Below are positions 1,677 to 48,169 of a DNA stretch of 64,000 nucleotides, in pieces. The position numbers and the translations under genes are program-made. The notes beneath the pieces are model-generated. The model was not told where the DNA came from, made no database searches, and was given only the letters and a program-made list of their open reading frames with translations. This stretch comes from a virus, in IMG/VR virus record IMGVR_UViG_3300037459_000160, positions 1-64,000 of that record. One strand, written 5' to 3'. Each line of letters opens with the position of its first letter. The first letter of the stretch is position 1.

Positions 1677-2129
1677 ATGCCTCAAGAAACCGTAACAATT
1701 GCCGGGATGCCTGAAATTTGGTCAAGCGATATTTCGTTTTTCCCAAGCGATGTTTCGGCAGCCTTTGCAAAGTGGGCCGTTAAACAATCCCCGTTTTGTA
1801 CGCCTCAAAACCTTACTAATGCGATTGAGTACGTTCAAGAACACGCGGAAACGTGGGTTGAACGTGAGGATTTCCAAGCCCCTCAAATACGATTGGTGCG
1901 GCTCAATTGCCGCGAGGTTCATAAACGCCTTGAGGAATTCTTTGAGCGAACACCCGTTATTGAAGCGTGGAACCATCCGAAATCGGGAAAGGAACAAGCG
2001 TTTTATGGAGGGGATCGGCAGGGCAATTATCAAAGCCCCGATGATGACATTATTGACCTTGGAGCGTTGGCCCGTAATGTTGCCCATGACCTTGCGTTGT
2101 GGCACATTTATGACCGAGCCCACGATTAA
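1677..2129 (+). CDS. Hypothetical phage protein
   Basis: 150 aa ORF preceded by AAGGAA RBS. Confidence 0.75.
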   Translation: MPQETVTIAGMPEIWSSDISFFPSDVSAAFAKWAVKQSPFCTPQNLTNAIEYVQEHAETWVEREDFQAPQIRLVRLNCREVHKRLEEFFERTPVIEAWNHPKSGKEQAFYGGDRQGNYQSPDDDIIDLGALARNVAHDLALWHIYDRAHD

Positions 2130-2135
2130 AGTATA

Positions 2136-2236
2136 GGCTCCGTGACGAAATGGCAAACGTTGGTAGAGCAAGATAATGTTCTACTGCCCGATACGGTAAT
2201 AGGTCGGGATTGCAGGTTCAAGTCCTGCCGGAGCCT
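2136..2236 (+). tRNA. tRNA-like element (class II/Leu-like scaffold) with aberrant extended anticodon arm; possible pseudo-tRNA
   Basis: Acceptor stem GGCTCCG/CGGAGCC; D-arm ACG-AAATGGCAAA-CGT; T-arm GCAGG-TTCAAGT-CCTGC; long variable arm CCCGAT/GTCGGG; anticodon arm is a 9-bp stem with a 6-nt loop; no CCA. Confidence 0.7.
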
Positions 2237-2319
2237 TTAGCAGTTTGGCCCATGGCCGGCCGATAATCGAAACGTCTTAACTCTTGGGGCCCATCGTTCA
2301 AAATTGAGGGAGAAACGTG

Positions 2320-2535
2320 ATGGCCAAAAATAGAGCCAGAAAAAAACCTAATGACTTGAAAAAGGTACCGACTAACATTGCACTCAAGCCGCAATTGATC
2401 AAACGGGTACGTGTCGTTGCCGCTAGAAATCTTGAGCAAGTTACCGACGTAATGGAGCGTTTGATTTTAGCGGGCATAATTGATGAAGAGTTGCAAGCCG
2501 AGGCGAATCAAAACGCTCGGCCTAACCCAAGGTGA
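2320..2535 (+). CDS. Small putative ribbon-helix-helix-type DNA-binding protein (paralog of 3152-3367)
   Basis: Basic N-terminus, beta-strand then helices, C-terminal DEELQAEANQNARP shared with paralog. Confidence 0.55.
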   Translation: MAKNRARKKPNDLKKVPTNIALKPQLIKRVRVVAARNLEQVTDVMERLILAGIIDEELQAEANQNARPNPR

Positions 2536-3151: not shown

Positions 3152-3367
3152 ATGGCACGAGAAAAACTTAGCGATCTGGAAAAAGTGCATGTTCACATTA
3201 GGTTGACTCCTGCGATGTTCAATCGAATCCGGCGAATTGCGGGAATCAATTTTGAAACTATATCCGAGGTAATGGCCCGAATGGTTTTGGCTTCCTTGGA
3301 TGAGGAAGAATTGCAAGCCGAGGCAAACAGGAATGCCCGGCCTAAGACTACTCGCGAGATTTCATGA
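3152..3367 (+). CDS. Small putative RHH-type DNA-binding protein (paralog of 2320-2535)
   Basis: VHVHIRLTPAMFNRIRRIA; C-terminal DEEELQAEANRNARP; GAGGAG RBS. Confidence 0.6.
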   Translation: MAREKLSDLEKVHVHIRLTPAMFNRIRRIAGINFETISEVMARMVLASLDEEELQAEANRNARPKTTREIS

Positions 3368-3947: not shown

Positions 3948-4358
3948 AATTTTTAACCCCGTAATTTTTGGAGAAAAACGATGCCGAAGTACAAAGTGAA
4001 ATTGCAACGACCCGTTACCGAGGATATTGAGGTTGAGATTGAGGCTCCCGACAAACGATCGGCTACGGGGGTGGCCGCCGATCAAACCAACAAAAGATTG
4101 CCGGGCCTTCCCTGGATTGTTCTTACGCGTGAGGAAATACCCGAGCCTTTGCTCTATACAGGCATTGTGAGAACTTCAAATGCCGAAACTCTCTTGCGGT
4201 ATTACAAGAAATGCACGCGGGCCGATTGCAAGGCCGAGGCAGAAGCGGCGGGAGAGACGTTGGTTTACCTATTTGAGGGCCACGTTACGCCGATTAGTTG
4301 ATGGCAAATTACGAATTTTTAACCCCGTAACTTTTGGAGAAAAACGATGCCGAAGTAC
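3948..4358 (+). repeat. 45-bp direct repeat (3948-3992 and 4314-4358) spanning leader and start of two tandem paralogs
   Basis: AATTTTTAACCCCGTAA(T/C)TTTTGGAGAAAAACGATGCCGAAGTAC, 1 mismatch. Confidence 0.9.
3981..4301 (+). CDS. Hypothetical protein, tandem paralog A
   Basis: MPKYKVKLQRP...LFEGH shared with next gene. Confidence 0.8.
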   Translation: MPKYKVKLQRPVTEDIEVEIEAPDKRSATGVAADQTNKRLPGLPWIVLTREEIPEPLLYTGIVRTSNAETLLRYYKKCTRADCKAEAEAAGETLVYLFEGHVTPIS

Positions 4359-4730
4359 GTAGTGACTTTACAGCGACCTTTGTTTGAGGTTAGGACTGTT
4401 GTGGTTGAGGAATCCAAAGGTCATGCGTCTTATTCTGCCGAGGATACGGCAAATAAAAACCTTGACCACCACGAGCCTAAATGGGAAGCTACGGGGATGA
4501 AACCCTTGCCCGAACCTCAGCCGTTTACGGCGGTAGTTACGGGCAACAATCAAGATCCGTTTTTGCGACAGTTTACCGAGTTTTCGCGGGTTGAGTGTGA
4601 GCAAAGGTGTCAAGGTGCGGGACAAACTTTGCTCTTTTTGTTTGAGGGTCACTTAGAGCAAGCTGATGGTGTGGGCTCTAAACCTCTTGCAGCCTACCCG
4701 CACGCCCGCGAGGGCGGAAGTATAGGCTGA
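4347..4730 (+). CDS. Hypothetical protein, tandem paralog B
   Basis: MPKYVVTLQRP...LFEGH. Confidence 0.8.
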   Translation: MPKYVVTLQRPLFEVRTVVVEESKGHASYSAEDTANKNLDHHEPKWEATGMKPLPEPQPFTAVVTGNNQDPFLRQFTEFSRVECEQRCQGAGQTLLFLFEGHLEQADGVGSKPLAAYPHAREGGSIG

Positions 4731-30455: not shown

Positions 30456-31101
30456 ACCCTATTTTACGAGGTACCCCCCGATGGAATTTTGTGTACCTCC
30501 CGATTTTAATTCGTGGCCCAATGGAAAGCGTTTAGAGTGGCATAGAAAACGGATTGAGCGGGAAGCCGTGGCGTACGATTACTTGGAGAAAATCAAGATA
30601 ATTTCAACGAAAACCTTTGAGGAATTACAAAACCAGTTGAACGGCGTACGATCGGAACGGCGGGCAGTTGAGGCGACGTTGGCGGTTGTGGAAGCCCCGG
30701 CGTTTATTGAGTTGCAGGCGAGACTTGATGCGGGTATTAACGCGGCCAATGTTTTGATTCGGCTTCGCAAAGCCTATATCACAACTCAATTTCGCCGTAA
30801 TTCAGTTTGCGACAAGGCCGGCGAGGCGGATTACCTCAAGAGGCTCGGCGGGAAGATTGACCACGATATTAACGCGGCCGAGCAGATTGAGGGCGAAATT
30901 ATTACGTATTGCGAAAGGCATGGGATTGACCCGTTGCCATTTTTCCGCGTTGATGAGGAATTAGGCAACCATCGAATCCCCGAGGAAGGGCCGAGGAATG
31001 ACCGAGTTAAAAAACCTCAAAAATGTAATTCGGTATCCGATTGGATACGGCGAGGCTTGCGACAGGTTGACAATTCTACAAATCAAAGCAATGCGGATTG
31101 A
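30448..31101 (+). CDS. Hypothetical helical protein
   Basis: Coupled ORF of about 217 aa. Confidence 0.6.
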   Translation: MRKPYFTRYPPMEFCVPPDFNSWPNGKRLEWHRKRIEREAVAYDYLEKIKIISTKTFEELQNQLNGVRSERRAVEATLAVVEAPAFIELQARLDAGINAANVLIRLRKAYITTQFRRNSVCDKAGEADYLKRLGGKIDHDINAAEQIEGEIITYCERHGIDPLPFFRVDEELGNHRIPEEGPRNDRVKKPQKCNSVSDWIRRGLRQVDNSTNQSNAD

Positions 31102-41430: not shown

Positions 41431-43623
41431 ATGAGTGAGCAAGAACAAGCCGAGCTTGAGGCCGAGGCCGTCGAAAAGCTCAAGGATGATCCGGTTACGC
41501 CCGAGCAATCCGAGGCAACGTTGATTTCGGCGTTGGCCGATGCGGCGTATGAGACTTCCGAGGGCGATGAGCCCATAATTGAGGAAGTTTTCATAACGGA
41601 TGAGGAAACTATTGCCACGGCCGAGGATTTGATTAAGGAATTCACCCGAAAATCAATGCGATGTTTTGATGAAAGCCGCATTGTTTCGGATGAGGCAACA
41701 AGCCGGGGCTCAAGTGCCCTTTCGTTTTTGCTGGCGGGTAAGGGTGACAAGGAAAAAGAGCTTACCCAAAAGACCGCACGCGGTACGCAACAATCGGTAC
41801 GAGAACTTGGACGGGGTTCCATGGGTACCGATTTGGCGACAATCAAAGTCGTTGAGCCCCCATACCCGCCCGAGTTGCTCGCGGCGTTTCTTGAGGTTGA
41901 CGAAACGCATTTTCGTTGTGTACGGACCAAAGTTACCGATGCGATAGGGCGAGAGTTTGAGCTAGTTCCCACGGTAACGGTTGATCCCGATGAGAAGGAA
42001 GAAAAAGCGGGCCGCCCAAAGGCCCAAACACCCGATCCAAGGCCCCCACTGGGCAGCCTCGCGGACCCGACGCGGATTCTTGACCGAGATACTTCCGGCG
42101 TTAATCAAGGCCCCGGTGAGGCCCTTAACGATAACCGAACGCTTGTTGAGAAAATTGCAAAGGCTGGCGTTTCGGCGGTAAGCAACATTCAAAGGGAACA
42201 TACCCCAAAACGAACCGTCGTACCACAAGCCGAAGTTGACGCCGAGACTCAAGACATTGAAGATTTTATTGAGGATGCCAATGAGGTTCTCGGTTTTGAG
42301 GGCGTACTTGACCGAGCTTGTATGGATTATGAGGCGGTTGGGTGGGCAGCAATTGAAATTATCCGTTCGGCTGATTTCAAAATACGGCGGATTGCCCACG
42401 TACCCGCCCCCCGCGTGCGGGTGTTAAAAGGTTGGGCTGGATTCGTTGAGATTTTTGATAATACCGGGCTCAAGGGTAGCGTTGCGGGGGCTCATTTCCG
42501 ATATTATCAACCGTTCGGGAGTAAGGTCGTAATGCGGGCCGACGATCCGACAACGGGCGAAACGGTAGCGTACAACCCAAAAGACCACGGCCCTCTTGAC
42601 CCGGCAAAAGTTAAATGGAATCTTGTTGACCGCGAGACCGGCAAGCCAACCGAGGATATTTCTAGGGCGGCAAATGAAATCCTTTGGATTCCTAGGCATC
42701 ACGCAAATACGATTTATTATGGGTTTACCGATGTTGTGCCGGCCTTGGGTTGGTTACTTGCCAACGTTCATATTCGCGATTATCTGCTTTCATTTTTTGA
42801 ACACAACACGGTGCCCCGGTTCGCGGTAATCATCGAAGGGGCCAAGTTGAGCGAGCCGGTTAAGAAAGCGATTATGTCGTATTTCGGCACGCACGTTAAA
42901 GGCAAGGCTCACAAAACTTTGATTGTGCCGATTCCCGCGTTGCGAGGCGAGGTAAAGGTTAGGTTTGAAAAACTTGACGCGGACAACAAAGAGGGCAGTT
43001 TTCAGGATACGAAAAAGAACAACAGCCAAGGGATTATGACGGCTCATGGCGTAAGCCCGGCGATTATTGGTATTGCCGAATCGTCGGAATTAGGTTCGGG
43101 TAAGGGCTTGAGCCAAGCCGAAATTTACAAGGATAGGATTGTTACGCCAAGCCAACGCTATTGGGCTCGAAAACTTAACCGTATGTTTCGGCTCGGGCTT
43201 GGTACGACATTGGTTGCTATCAAGTTTAACCCGTTAGATATCCGAGACCGTAAAGCCGAACAAGAGGTTTTGACCGGGTATCTTAAAATGGGTGTTGCGA
43301 CGATTAACGAAGTACGCAAGCGGGCGGGGCTTGGTAAGCCTGTTGAGGGCGGGGATAGGGCTTTCGTAATTGTCGGAAACCAAATTATGTTTGTTGACGA
43401 ATTAACCGAGGCGATGGGTTCGGAATTGGAAGCCTTAACCGATGAACTTGAGCGTACGCAATCGGATATGGCGAACAAAGCCGCCGAGGAAAAGGGCCGC
43501 ATGGCGGGTGAGCGGCAAGCGGCGGCAGTTAATCCCCCCAGTGTGAGCAATGGCAACGGAAATCCCTCAACTCCTAATAAAGCCAACGGTAAGCAACCGG
43601 CAGCGGCAAAGGCGGGTTCGTAG
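41431..43623 (+). CDS. Portal protein
   Basis: EPPYPP, YYGF.D, FFEHNTVPR, AHGVSPAIIG, TINEVRKRAGLGKPVEGGD; gene position. Confidence 0.9.
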   Translation: MSEQEQAELEAEAVEKLKDDPVTPEQSEATLISALADAAYETSEGDEPIIEEVFITDEETIATAEDLIKEFTRKSMRCFDESRIVSDEATSRGSSALSFLLAGKGDKEKELTQKTARGTQQSVRELGRGSMGTDLATIKVVEPPYPPELLAAFLEVDETHFRCVRTKVTDAIGREFELVPTVTVDPDEKEEKAGRPKAQTPDPRPPLGSLADPTRILDRDTSGVNQGPGEALNDNRTLVEKIAKAGVSAVSNIQREHTPKRTVVPQAEVDAETQDIEDFIEDANEVLGFEGVLDRACMDYEAVGWAAIEIIRSADFKIRRIAHVPAPRVRVLKGWAGFVEIFDNTGLKGSVAGAHFRYYQPFGSKVVMRADDPTTGETVAYNPKDHGPLDPAKVKWNLVDRETGKPTEDISRAANEILWIPRHHANTIYYGFTDVVPALGWLLANVHIRDYLLSFFEHNTVPRFAVIIEGAKLSEPVKKAIMSYFGTHVKGKAHKTLIVPIPALRGEVKVRFEKLDADNKEGSFQDTKKNNSQGIMTAHGVSPAIIGIAESSELGSGKGLSQAEIYKDRIVTPSQRYWARKLNRMFRLGLGTTLVAIKFNPLDIRDRKAEQEVLTGYLKMGVATINEVRKRAGLGKPVEGGDRAFVIVGNQIMFVDELTEAMGSELEALTDELERTQSDMANKAAEEKGRMAGERQAAAVNPPSVSNGNGNPSTPNKANGKQPAAAKAGS

Positions 43624-46600
43624 ACTTAGCCGGTTGATTGTTGTTAAGGCGGCCTCAAGTGGAATTCGATTAAGACTTGAGCGAGACCTTGAGAACAAGT
43701 TACGGCGAATCATTCGCGAACTTTTCGCCGAATTACGGCAAAGCCTTTCCAGTAGATTCCTCCAAGGGATCGGCCGTCAAGCGAACCTGTTTAGGCGTAC
43801 CGCACGCGGGCCCGCACGCACACGCACGCGGGCAGCCAATGAGCTTACGCGGGCCTTCATGGGCCCTTTACGCGATGTGTTGCTCGATACCGAGCAACTT
43901 GCCGCGTTTCGTTATTGGCTCGGCATATCTCAAATACGGGCGTATGAGTATGGGGCGGTAACCGCGTTGCGGGCGATGGGATTTGCGGCAACCTCGCGAC
44001 GGGTTCAAGAGATTGAGAAACGCATTACGGTTTCAAAGGCGGCTGGCGATATCGTCTTTGAGTTGACCGATGCTGAGTTGATTAACGAGCTTGAGGGCCG
44101 GCCGATCGTAGTTGGGGCGGGCCTTGCCCCGGCCGTTGTTGAGGATGCCCGCAAGTTAATTCGGGATGAGTTGTTTTTGGGTAACGCCAGCACGGGTGAG
44201 GGCGGAATTTCCGATTTGATCTTGGCGGGCGGCCAAGTGCCGGAATACCGAGCGTTGCGGATTTCCCGAACCGAAACCCAATCCGCCTTTAATCAAGGAT
44301 TTTACAAAGTCGAACAGCGTTCGGGAATCAAAAAACATTCATGGGTGACGGTGGGCGATAGGCGAGTAAGGCCAGAACACGCAATGAATGAGGATTCTGG
44401 CGATATTCCCATTGGCGATCCTTTTGCGTCGTTGCAAATCCATCCCGGCGATCCCGGCCCACTGGTTTTACACGTTAATTGTCGGTGTTCACTTCAACCA
44501 GATTTATCCGATCCCAATATTTTGCTTGACCCGTGGGCGGGCGATTCCGGGGCCAACCTTAAGACCGATCCGACATTACCGGGCATTCCTCCAAAAATCG
44601 GCAAAATCAGGACCGCATTGAATCAAGCCCAAGCGAGGGCACGGGCAGCGATCCGAGCCGAGGGCGAGGCAATAAAGGCCAGGAAACTAGCCGAAGCCGG
44701 GGCCCAAGCAGCGGCCAAGAAAAAGACCGTTCAAGAATCTAAGGCGGTTGCAAGTACCAAGAGTGAGTTTGAGGCGATTGTTAAAAGTATTGATGCCGAT
44801 GATACATTTTTCAAGATTAGTCAACTTGGCGATAAGTTGAAAGGTTTGAGCAAGGCCGAGGCCCAAGAGCTTGCAAAACAACTAGGGTTTGTATCCAAGC
44901 AATCGTTTGCGACCAAGAAAAAAGCAATTCAAACCATTACGGGCGAGTTGAAAAAGTTTGCCAAATCGGCCGGGGATGTTAAGGGCGTTGATAAAGCCTT
45001 TGGAGAATTCGTATTTGCCACCAAGCCGGTTAGAGAGGCAGCGGAGCAAAAGTTTAAGGTGGAAGCCTTAGAGGATGTAAATAAAGCCAAGTCGGTTTTG
45101 AAAGGCAGTACCAAGGCGATTGACGTTGCCACGTTGGACGCGGCGACGGCGGCCGACTATGCGGAGTTTCTTGAGTGGCAAGCGGTGCAAGCTGGAAAAA
45201 CTCAGAGTTATGGCGTTGTTATCTTTGACGATCAAGGGCGGGTATTACTTCGGCGGGCCAAGGGGGATTTCGGCGGTACCCGTTGGTCATTTGCTAAGGG
45301 CGGGGGAACCAAGCCCGGTACAACGGCACTTAAAGAACTTGCGGAGGAAACCGGGCACCAAGCCAATATTACCGGGGCAATCAAAGGGGATTTTGAGGGC
45401 ACAACCACAAAAAATAACTACTTTGTTGGACGCAAAAAGGGCAAGTTTGATGCGGCCCTTATGGACGCGGAAACAGAGGAAGTGATTTGGGTAGATTTCA
45501 ATGAGGCAAAGAAACTCATAAAGCAATCCCCGAGTGAGTTGATTGTAAAACGTGATCTTGCCGTATTGGATGGGGCGTTTGATGAGATAAGCGGAAACTC
45601 AACAGCGTTAAAGGCGTTGGCAAAGAAAACCGAAACCAAGAAAAAGGTTGTCGATCTTGGCAAGCAACAAACGGCGGCGGCCGATGAGCTTATTGACGCG
45701 GCCAAGCAGTTACAAAAAGCCGCACAAGGCGACCCCGAGGCAGTAAGCAAGCTTTCCAAGGCCGTTAAGAATTTGAAAAAACTAGGCGTTTCCGATACCA
45801 AAATTCAAGAGCTTACCAAAGCGGGCATACAGGCGGGCAAGACCGCCAAGGCTCAAGGAATCCTTGACAATCTCAAAGGTAAGTTGCCAAAAACAATTGA
45901 TGAAATTGATAACGTGGTTGCCGAGCTTAAGAAGTTACAAGCCGGCCTCGGCGGGCTTGAGGCCGAAGTTGATGAGGCAGTTTCCAAAAAGCTCAAATCA
46001 CTCGGCAGCAAGAAAAGCCAACTCAAAAAGAAACTCAAACCAACAGCCAAGCCGGATGAGCCGGAAGTGCTAATAGCCCTAGACATACAAGCCCCAACGA
46101 CTCAAGCATTAAAGGAAGAATTTGAGGCAACGGTTACAAAATCGGAATTGGGTTCGTTATTTAGTCAAACCGAGGCTAAGTTACTTGCCGAGGATTTGAA
46201 AAACGCGGGCGTATCCGCCGACGAAATCGCCAAACTTCAAAAATCGGGAGTACAGGCGGGCAACGAGAAAAAGGCCAAGAGCTTTATTGAGGCTCAAACG
46301 GGAGCGGGCTTGCCCGATGGTCTGGATGATCTTAATGAGCTTGAGGATAAGGTTTTTGGCTTCCTCCAAAAGGGTTTCAAAGATCCCGCACTAGAAAAGA
46401 AATTTGAAGGGGCGTTAAAGAACATTGATTTGAAGAAAAAGGAAATCTTTGCGAAGCCGGCAGCCACGAAAGCCGAAATCAAAGCTCAAAATACCAAAGC
46501 TAACTCACTCGCCAATACTAACCCTCAATCGCTCCAAGATATTAAGGTTGTTGAGGAAGAATTGAAGGCGTTGCAAAATCTCGGTAATCTTAACCCGACT

Positions 46601-48169
46601 ACCGATTTTTCGGTTGACAGCAAGTTACAGGTACTCCAATTCAAGAAAAGCCAACTCCAAAAGAAAGCCGCGAAACCAACAACCGGGCCAACCTCGGCGG
46701 ATATTCTCAAGAAAGCTGAAGCGGCCGACGCGAAACTTAAAGCCGAGCTTGAGGCCCTTGATGATATTAAGATCATTACCGAACCGATTCCAAAACCGAT
46801 TAAGGTAGATTTGGCCGATTTCCCGCCCGCCGATAAACTTGGTCGGTTGGATGAACTTAAGACGCTACCCGGTTCCACGGGGGCCAAGTTGGTTCAAGAC
46901 CCGCGAACGGGCAAAAAGTATGTACTCAAACGCGGAAACCAAAAATTATCTAAAGAGGCTCGCGAGGCACATTTACGCGAGGAATTTCTTGCCGACGACC
47001 TTTACCGGGCGGCCGGCGTTGACGTACCGGCCGGCGTGTTGTATGAGACCGCGAGCGGGCCGGTAAAGCTAACGGAATTCATTGAGGGTACCGAAGATTT
47101 GGCAACCGTACTTGCTAAGGGCGGGTCAAGAGCCAAAAAGGTACTCACCAAAATACAAGGGGATTTTGCCGAGGATGCCCTATTCGCGAATTGGGATGTT
47201 ATCGGCTTGAGCCAGGATAATATTCTTGTAACCAAGACCGGTAAGGTTTTGAGAATTGATAACGGCGGGGCGTTAAGGTTCCGAGCCCAAGGGGCCCCCA
47301 AGGGTAGTCATTTTGGAAATGATGTTGGAGAACTTGCTAGTTTACGAAGCTCGGCGGCCGGGAAAGAAGTGTTTGGACAGTTGACCGATGAGGCAGTTGC
47401 CAAGCAGATTTTCGCGTTGCAATCAAAAAGGGAAGTAATACTTGCCACGATCAAAGACCGAGCGTTAAGAGCGACGATTTCTAAACGCTTAGACTCAATG
47501 AAAACTTGGGCCGATGATGTAATTGAGAAAATTGCAACACGAAAGAAGAATTTGGCTAGTGGTAGAAAACTTAGGCCCGGCGAATTCTCAAACGATCCCG
47601 TAGCTATTGACCCAAGAATTGAAAATCGGGCCACGTTTATAACACCCAAGGCGAAAAAGGCAGCCGAGGAAACGGCACCATTGCGAGAAATGACGAAAAA
47701 ACTTAGAGACTTGGGCCCGCGTGAACATTCGGCGATTGAGGACTATTCGGGTTCATCCTATAGAAGGCTCAATTCTAACTTGCGTAAGGGTAAAAGCCTT
47801 ACGGACGATCAATTACAAATGGTCAAGGGTATTGATGTCGGGCTTGCCGAGGTACCCTCGGCAGCTAAAGAACACCCGGTTGTATTTCGCAAGTTGGAGC
47901 AAGAGGGGCAAAAACTTGAGGCGTTCTTAGCTAAGCATCCCGAGGGCGGCATTGTCTCGTATAACGAATACCTTTCAACCTCATTTTCTAAAGGTACTTG
48001 GAGCGGGAATATTGAGTATGAAATAAGACACAAGACCGGCCGACGAATCAAAGAAATATCGTTGCATCGTAGTGAGGATGAGGTTTTGTTTGGTAGGGGA
48101 GCGGAATTTTTAGTTGAGAGAGTGGAACGGACGGGCAACCGGGTAAAGATTTTCCTAACGGAGTTGTAA
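43550..48169 (+). CDS. MuF (gp7-like) minor head protein fused to Nudix, PI3/4K-HipA-like kinase and ADP-ribosyltransferase domains (start uncertain)
   Basis: MuF: [28 protein letters not shown]; Nudix: [17 protein letters not shown]; kinase: GSTGA..YVLK, NWDVIG..DNIL..RIDNG; ART: VFR, YLSTS, EDEVL. Confidence 0.88.

Follow-up and report, generated by a model that had tools for sequence, protein, structure and literature searches.

The RNAs known as species 1 and 2 of phage T4 are annotated in GenBank as tRNA-like stable RNAs, no function being given. In the engineered tRNA scaffold, the anticodon arm is swapped for a structured RNA, and the product is still processed and stable in E. coli. 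In phage T5 (GenBank AY543070), RNA1 (misc_RNA 30501-30644) and RNA2 are both annotated as 'tRNA-like stable RNA with unknown functions', and RNA1 gives 38.0 bits against a tRNA-Leu model, with a 44-nt insert at the anticodon position. According to Devoto et al. 2019 (PMC6784885), Lak megaphages have tRNAs that are 'larger than expected', contain 'enigmatic introns' and escape classification by the standard calling of bacterial tRNAs.

The RNA described here lies at positions 2136-2236 of the window, that is, the whole stretch of DNA analysed, which comprises the first 64 kb of a 104,668-bp IMG/VR record (linear, estimated to be 84% complete). It is one member of a widespread and structurally conserved group of phage RNAs, the tRNA-Leu shells, in which an acceptor, D and T body of Leu type, as in T5 RNA1, encloses a non-canonical middle.

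The RNA at 2136-2236 and its genomic context

The record belongs to a tailed phage, as is evident from its large terminase, portal and MuF-type head protein. Nearly all long reading frames of the window are on the plus strand, and the GC skew is uniformly positive over it. The features of the locus are as follows.

1677-2129, plus strand: Tad5-like protein of 150 aa, type I Thoeris inhibitor family (PF25190 Tad5, E 5.9e-20, 72 bits, cut-off 27)
2136-2236, plus strand: whole tRNA-Leu-shaped RNA, 101 nt, CCA not encoded (fold; covariance model R1, 52.2 bits)
2136-2142, plus strand: 5' strand of the acceptor stem, GGCTCCG, 7/7 pairs with 2229-2235
2143-2144, plus strand: U8 and G9
2145-2160, plus strand: D arm, 3-bp stem ACG/CGT (2145-2147/2158-2160) and loop AAATGGCAAA, with A14, A15, G18 and G19
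2162-2185, plus strand: remodelled 'anticodon' arm of 24 nt, 9-bp stem (2162-2170/2177-2185, including two G-U pairs) and 6-nt loop AGATAA (2171-2176)
2186-2211, plus strand: variable region of 26 nt, 6-bp stem (2187-2192/2203-2208) and 10-nt loop
2212-2228, plus strand: T arm, GCAGG TTCAAGT CCTGC
2229-2236, plus strand: 3' strand of the acceptor stem, CGGAGCC, and discriminator T2236 (U73)
2317-2535, plus strand: next downstream gene, a 72-aa basic protein with a paralogue at 3152-3367, no Pfam or PHROG match

The five stems together comprise 30 base pairs, none of which is broken, and no conserved base of the elbow is missing; A2135-T2236 could form an eighth acceptor pair. The cloverleaf is the unconstrained minimum-energy fold of the RNA (-41.4 kcal/mol, z = -3.9), and none of 200 shuffled sequences folded as well. 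When folded alone, the 24-nt arm has a z of -5.3 and the variable region a z of -1.4. The addition of 4 bp to an inherited 5-bp stem has a chance of about 2% per register, a figure that is suggestive only. The elements listed in a preliminary description of this DNA, namely the seven-pair acceptor stem with its optional eighth pair, the Leu-like D loop, the T arm and the long variable arm, were all located again, and the 9-bp stem with the loop AGATAA at the anticodon position is both present in the sequence and reproduced by the minimum-energy fold.

The stop codon of the Tad5-like gene is situated 6 nt upstream of the RNA start. The Pfam Tad5 domain is likewise found in nine homologues of its product, and Tad5 has been reported to co-purify with ThsB, the Thoeris TIR protein (PMC13728456). 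No promoter or terminator above chance was detected beside the RNA, which makes co-transcription the simplest reading. A search of the whole phage genome for antisense targets of the two loops was negative, and no phage-encoded RtcB, CCA-adding enzyme or RNA ligase was found.

Several other genes of the window deserve a mention on their own account. The paralogous basic proteins encoded at 2317-2535 and 3152-3367 (71-72 aa) have a common C-terminal motif, ...EELQAEANxNARP..., and a second pair of small early paralogues (3981-4301 and 4347-4730), has members that both start with MPKY.V.LQRP; none of these four genes has a Pfam or PHROG match. The plus-strand gene at 43550-48169 encodes a head-associated protein of 1539 aa with MuF, Nudix and ADP-ribosyltransferase domains (Pfam).

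This phage has no ordinary tRNAs, and two further oversize tRNA-shaped RNAs are found at about 97.3-97.7 kb of the record. An oversize tRNA-shaped gene is also present in a relative with some 60% terminase identity, at a place which is not syntenic with the tRNA-shaped elements of this phage.

G000:97345-97465 (L008:1501-1621), outside the window, plus strand: second tRNA-shaped RNA, 121 nt
G000:97476-97689 (L008:1632-1845), outside the window, plus strand: third tRNA-shaped RNA, 214 nt, 10 nt after the second
G001:59636-59932 (L090:236-532): oversize tRNA-shaped gene in the relative

In the 121-nt RNA, the acceptor stem and the T arm are perfect, position 73 is U, and both the D region and the middle are remodelled (Rfam tRNA 27.5 bits; fold z = -3.1). 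The 214-nt RNA, which has no Rfam match, combines a 7/7 acceptor stem and a T arm with about 140 nt inserted in the D loop, and shows at the anticodon position only a 3-bp stem with a 5-nt 'UUUUC' hairpin. The gene of the relative has a tRNA-like start, GCGAGGG TA GCTC AATTGG, and ends in a T arm, an acceptor strand and A73; it measures 297 nt, or 116 nt if counted from the second copy of GCGAGGG.

As regards the RNA at 2136-2236 itself, nothing was found by exact-sequence searches of IMG/VR with its 5' 25-mer and its 3' 24-mer, nor by blastn in 'distant' mode against the INPHARED phages, and searches with the neighbouring proteins yielded no close relative carrying it. Among 59 Tad5 loci examined, that of the closest homologue (58% aa identity) has no such RNA. 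Two related phages lack the entire early region, so that this copy has no orthologue with which it could be compared. The only sequencing run containing the phage is one DNA run of a marine-sediment metagenome, probably the source sample, and its reads gave the source contig only, with no variants.

Class of the RNA and its tRNA-Leu body

The preliminary description had proposed scoring the element with tRNA gene finders and covariance models, and the outcome depended on the tool. ARAGORN with default settings called no tRNA, either in the 64-kb window or in the whole phage, and the Rfam gathering scan over the whole window did not report the RNA. When a 401-nt slice was submitted, the Rfam tRNA model (RF00005) gave 35.8 bits (cut-off 29), with 46 nt of the middle skipped as a local end. 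Thus, default pipelines may under-report RNAs of this kind, since the slice scored above the cut-off and the whole-window scan was empty. A covariance model built from 15 normal tRNA-Leu genes, R1, gave 52.2 bits (E 5.7e-12), as against the 35.8 bits of the general Rfam model. If introns were allowed, ARAGORN forced the sequence into a 'tRNA-His(atg)' whose acceptor stem has 8 bp and whose intron has 7 nt. This model places A33 where U33 is required and is not credible.

The RNA shares with canonical tRNAs the 7-bp acceptor stem, the D arm with G18 and G19, and the T arm with a TTCRANY loop, and with class II tRNA-Leu the 3-bp D stem, the Leu D loop and the long variable arm. It departs from them at the decoding end, where 9 bp and the loop AGAUAA take the place of the 5-bp stem and 7-nt loop with U33 and a purine at 37, and at the discriminator, which is U73 instead of the A73 of tRNA-Leu. 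No Leu anticodon (NAG or YAA) stands in a 7-nt loop, the CAA and UAA triplets being paired or out of register. The RNA has U73 and no loop of the U33 type, and thus cannot decode. Of the preliminary interpretation, the part that calls it a non-decoding tRNA mimic is supported: there is no 7-nt loop with U33, the body is of Leu type, and the design recurs in many phages.

Other classes of RNA were considered and rejected. A tmRNA does not fit, as the 3-70 position is C3-G70 and not G3-U70, and neither the ARAGORN tmRNA search nor Rfam gave a match; nor does a tRNA-Sec, as the D stem has 3 bp and not 6 bp, there is no UCA loop, and the Rfam tRNA-Sec model gave no match. The permuted topology of Y-RNAs is not that observed here, and Rfam again gave no match. 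An intron-bearing tRNA is contradicted by the fact that the deletion of any contiguous 7 nt never gives U33, and by the lack of RtcB and RNA ligase in the phage. Finally, the remnant of a prophage att site would be a 3' piece, and here the tRNA shape is complete, with strand and GC skew uniform at the left end.

The ancestry of the body is indicated by three sets of observations. A pattern made of the D loop and T loop matched 14 stretches of IMG/VR, 13 of which were ordinary tRNA-Leu genes, and the D loop AAATGGCAAA is identical in many phage tRNA-Leu genes. A second pattern, made of the acceptor and T loop, matched ordinary class II tRNA-Leu(UAA) genes in a Planctomycetota MAG (L083) and in two viral contigs (L085, L086), as well as two Archangium tRNA-Arg genes. 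The three tRNA-Leu(UAA) genes have the same acceptor (GGCUCCG/CGGAGCC), U8, G9, type of D arm and T loop as the RNA at 2136-2236. They differ from it in that the stem has 5 bp and its loop reads CUUAAAA or UUUAAAA, that the variable region measures about 16 nt, and that A73 is present. In an alignment with the 15 normal tRNA-Leu genes, the anticodon arm of the RNA is 7 nt longer than the usual 17-nt arm and its variable arm about 10 nt longer, and A73, present in 15/15 of these genes, is replaced by U73. Because of the pattern matches, this alignment and the R1 score, the body is identified as that of a tRNA-Leu. Judged from these sequence comparisons, it is descended from a tRNA-Leu whose decoding end has been rebuilt and whose main LeuRS identity base has been lost.

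The phage tRNA-Leu shell group

IMG/VR was scanned with one narrow pattern that asked for a Leu-type D loop and a T loop separated by a gap too long for a normal tRNA-Leu. The scan returned 89 stretches, corresponding to 60 distinct sequences of 93-123 nt. In 87 of the 88 hits that could be parsed, 6-7 of the 7 acceptor pairs and 4-5 of the 5 T-stem pairs are formed, neither of which was demanded by the pattern. Across the 60 shells, each acceptor position is paired in 97-100% of the sequences, with 4-6 pair types per position, and this covariation indicates that the tRNA body is kept by selection.

The middles of the shells, of 42-72 nt, are mutually unrelated in sequence. About half of them contain two hairpins, as does the RNA at 2136-2236, and where the first hairpin is a simple one its loop has 3-8 nt and never 7. 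A canonical-looking anticodon hairpin (5-bp stem, 7-nt loop, U33, R37) is found in 8 of 61 sequences, RNA1 included. The discriminator among 61 is A73 in 51 cases and U73 in four, one of these being the RNA at 2136-2236, and CCA is not encoded in most shells. ARAGORN called a tRNA in only a handful of the 60 distinct sequences, and their Rfam tRNA scores are borderline (31-43 bits). Some shells lie within tRNA arrays; at 38 of the 89 loci, no ordinary ARAGORN tRNA is present on the fetched stretch.

The preliminary description had argued that all stems pair and hence that selection, not decay, had shaped the RNA. For the tRNA body, this argument holds at the level of the family, given the covariation. 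For the 9-bp arm of this copy, selection is at most a possibility, as no orthologue was found in the collections searched.

Two observations on particular members can be added. On contigs with three to four distinct RNA types (L174:2480-2962, minus strand; L137:332-1510, plus strand; and their clusters), the shell adjoins packaging genes: a cluster of gp3-type packaging proteins usually precedes it, at a median distance of 37 nt, and a large-terminase cluster follows it at a median of about 100 nt. In addition, two short RNAs have a Leu body together with an anticodon assigned by ARAGORN: one of 94 nt (L141), with a canonical 5-bp arm and the anticodon GGC, and one of 93 nt (L108), with the anticodon CUA. 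If charged by LeuRS, these RNAs would insert Leu at Ala or amber codons, respectively.

Literature searches found no paper describing the Leu-shell family. Uncultured phages commonly contain this design, which default ARAGORN overlooks, as did the whole-window Rfam gathering scan in the present case. Should shells prove to be working RNAs, they would constitute a large unannotated class of phage non-coding RNA. For annotation purposes, shell genes should not be counted as decoding tRNAs. The main value of the present case is to provide one more data point for a family that merits a systematic survey.

Proposed explanation, alternatives and comparison with known systems

On balance, we favour the explanation that the RNA at 2136-2236 is a tRNA-Leu-derived, non-decoding RNA of the shell group which is excised as a stable RNA by the host enzymes acting on tRNA ends. 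The part of a tRNA that RNase P, RNase Z and the CCA-adding enzyme recognise is its top half, namely the acceptor/T minihelix together with the elbow. Taking into account that these enzymes read only that half, they should be able to excise the RNA from the early transcript. The RNA would be transcribed together with the Tad5-like early gene, its 5' end would be made by host RNase P at G2136, and RNase Z or another 3' tRNA-end enzyme would cut after U2236. The later addition of CCA would give a stable RNA of about 101-104 nt with a rod-like arm, and the same cuts would part the Tad5 message from the downstream genes. Within the shell group, the precedent for a discrete stable RNA is the GenBank annotation of T5 alone. 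As for the role of the released RNA, our best guess is that it binds a protein or acts as a decoy.

It might be supposed instead that the locus is a dead, functionless tRNA-Leu gene, in which an insertion wrecked the anticodon loop and A73 changed to U, the rest having not yet decayed. This appears unlikely. The RNA is indeed a singleton with no orthologue in the collections searched, U73 removes the main LeuRS identity base (A73 in 15/15 normal genes), and no working tRNA is encoded by the phage, in which the two remaining tRNA-shaped genes are aberrant as well. However, the 30 base pairs of the five stems and all the conserved elbow bases are intact, and the 9 bp of the new arm form an unbroken helix (z = -5.3). 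Moreover, no 7-nt deletion restores a Leu-type loop, so that the change was not a simple insertion, and the same design is found in 60 distinct phage sequences with covarying stems.

A more specific version of the decoy role can be contemplated, although we regard it as doubtful: the RNA would be an anti-defence element co-expressed with the Tad5-like protein, a tRNA decoy offering no cleavable anticodon loop to an immune effector that binds or cuts tRNAs through their body or variable arm. Its position 6 nt after a gene of the Tad5 anti-Thoeris family is in its favour, and two other Tad5 loci have a Leu-type RNA downstream on the same strand. One of them has an ordinary tRNA-Leu(GAG) 49 nt downstream of the Tad5-like gene (L028:1044-1125, plus strand), and in the other the RNA, 1.1 kb downstream, is a Leu shell of 166 nt that carries A73 and about 93 inserted nt (L073:4205-4370, plus strand). 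These two loci may be a post-hoc hint of a Tad5/tRNA-Leu linkage, or may reflect hot spots of accessory genes. Phage tRNAs are reported to defeat PARIS, Retron-Eco7 and Septu, and Septu to cut the variable loop of a long-armed tRNA (PMC13728456; PMC13096335), which also speaks for a decoy. On the other side, none of the 89 shell loci has a Tad5 homologue, no protein family recurs beside different shell RNA types among the neighbours of the scanned loci, and the locus of the closest Tad5 homologue is without such an RNA. Accessory genes, furthermore, gather around phage tRNA regions regardless of Tad5, and to our knowledge Thoeris has no link with tRNAs. A decoy or protein-binding role is the most attractive specific idea, although it is a candidate only and a rather improbable one. 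The same low likelihood is attributed to the broader proposal that the whole shell family consists of interchangeable RNA cargoes on one tRNA chassis, of which the RNA at 2136-2236 would be a counter-defence decoy version.

It is very improbable that the RNA is aminoacylated and serves as an aminoacyl donor outside the ribosome or titrates a synthetase. Such a role would be in keeping with the fact that LeuRS and SerRS make no use of the anticodon, with the intact elbow and long variable arm, and with the presence of A73 in 51 of the 61 family sequences. Nevertheless, this copy has U73 instead of the invariant A73, a change that argues against leucylation and weakens the aminoacyl-donor idea of the preliminary description, and no tRNA-dependent transferase was found among the scanned neighbours. 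To judge by its discriminator, the RNA is probably not charged by LeuRS.

That it is a true decoding tRNA, with extra bases spliced out or read in an unusual manner, is hardly credible: the 7-nt intron of the ARAGORN model and the Lak precedent of oversize tRNAs with 'enigmatic introns' (PMC6784885) are offset by the facts that 7 nt are too few for a group I or bulge-helix-bulge intron, that no contiguous 7-nt removal gives U33, that RtcB, RNA ligase and CCA-adding enzyme are all lacking in the phage, and that the arm is too long for a ribosome-bound tRNA. From the geometry of tRNA, the decoding and peptidyl-transferase centres can be spanned by an arm about 4 bp shorter than this 9-bp one.

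The favoured explanation, a non-decoding RNA excised by tRNA-end enzymes, can be set beside the described systems. The tRNA-like domain of tmRNA and the Y RNAs of YrlA type likewise imitate the top half of a tRNA without decoding. Neither fits the RNA at 2136-2236, as G3-U70, pseudoknots and a tag reading frame are all required in a tmRNA, and Y RNAs are permuted. The Lak tRNAs are read as intron-bearing decoders with an assignable anticodon, whereas none can be assigned here. If shells are working RNAs, they would be a natural version of the engineered tRNA scaffold, which follows the same design. As an artificial construct based on tRNA-Lys or tRNA-Met, the scaffold provides an analogy only. 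T5 RNA1 resembles the RNA at 2136-2236 in its Leu-type D arm, its T arm, its paired acceptor end, its long variable hairpin and the replacement of its anticodon loop. RNA1, however, is 144 nt long, has a branched insert of about 44 nt and lies inside a large tRNA array, whereas the RNA described here has 101 nt, a plain 9-bp rod and U73, and stands alone after a protein gene. Thus, this case adds to the group a very simple shell, with a plain rod for an anticodon arm and U73, which adjoins an anti-defence gene.
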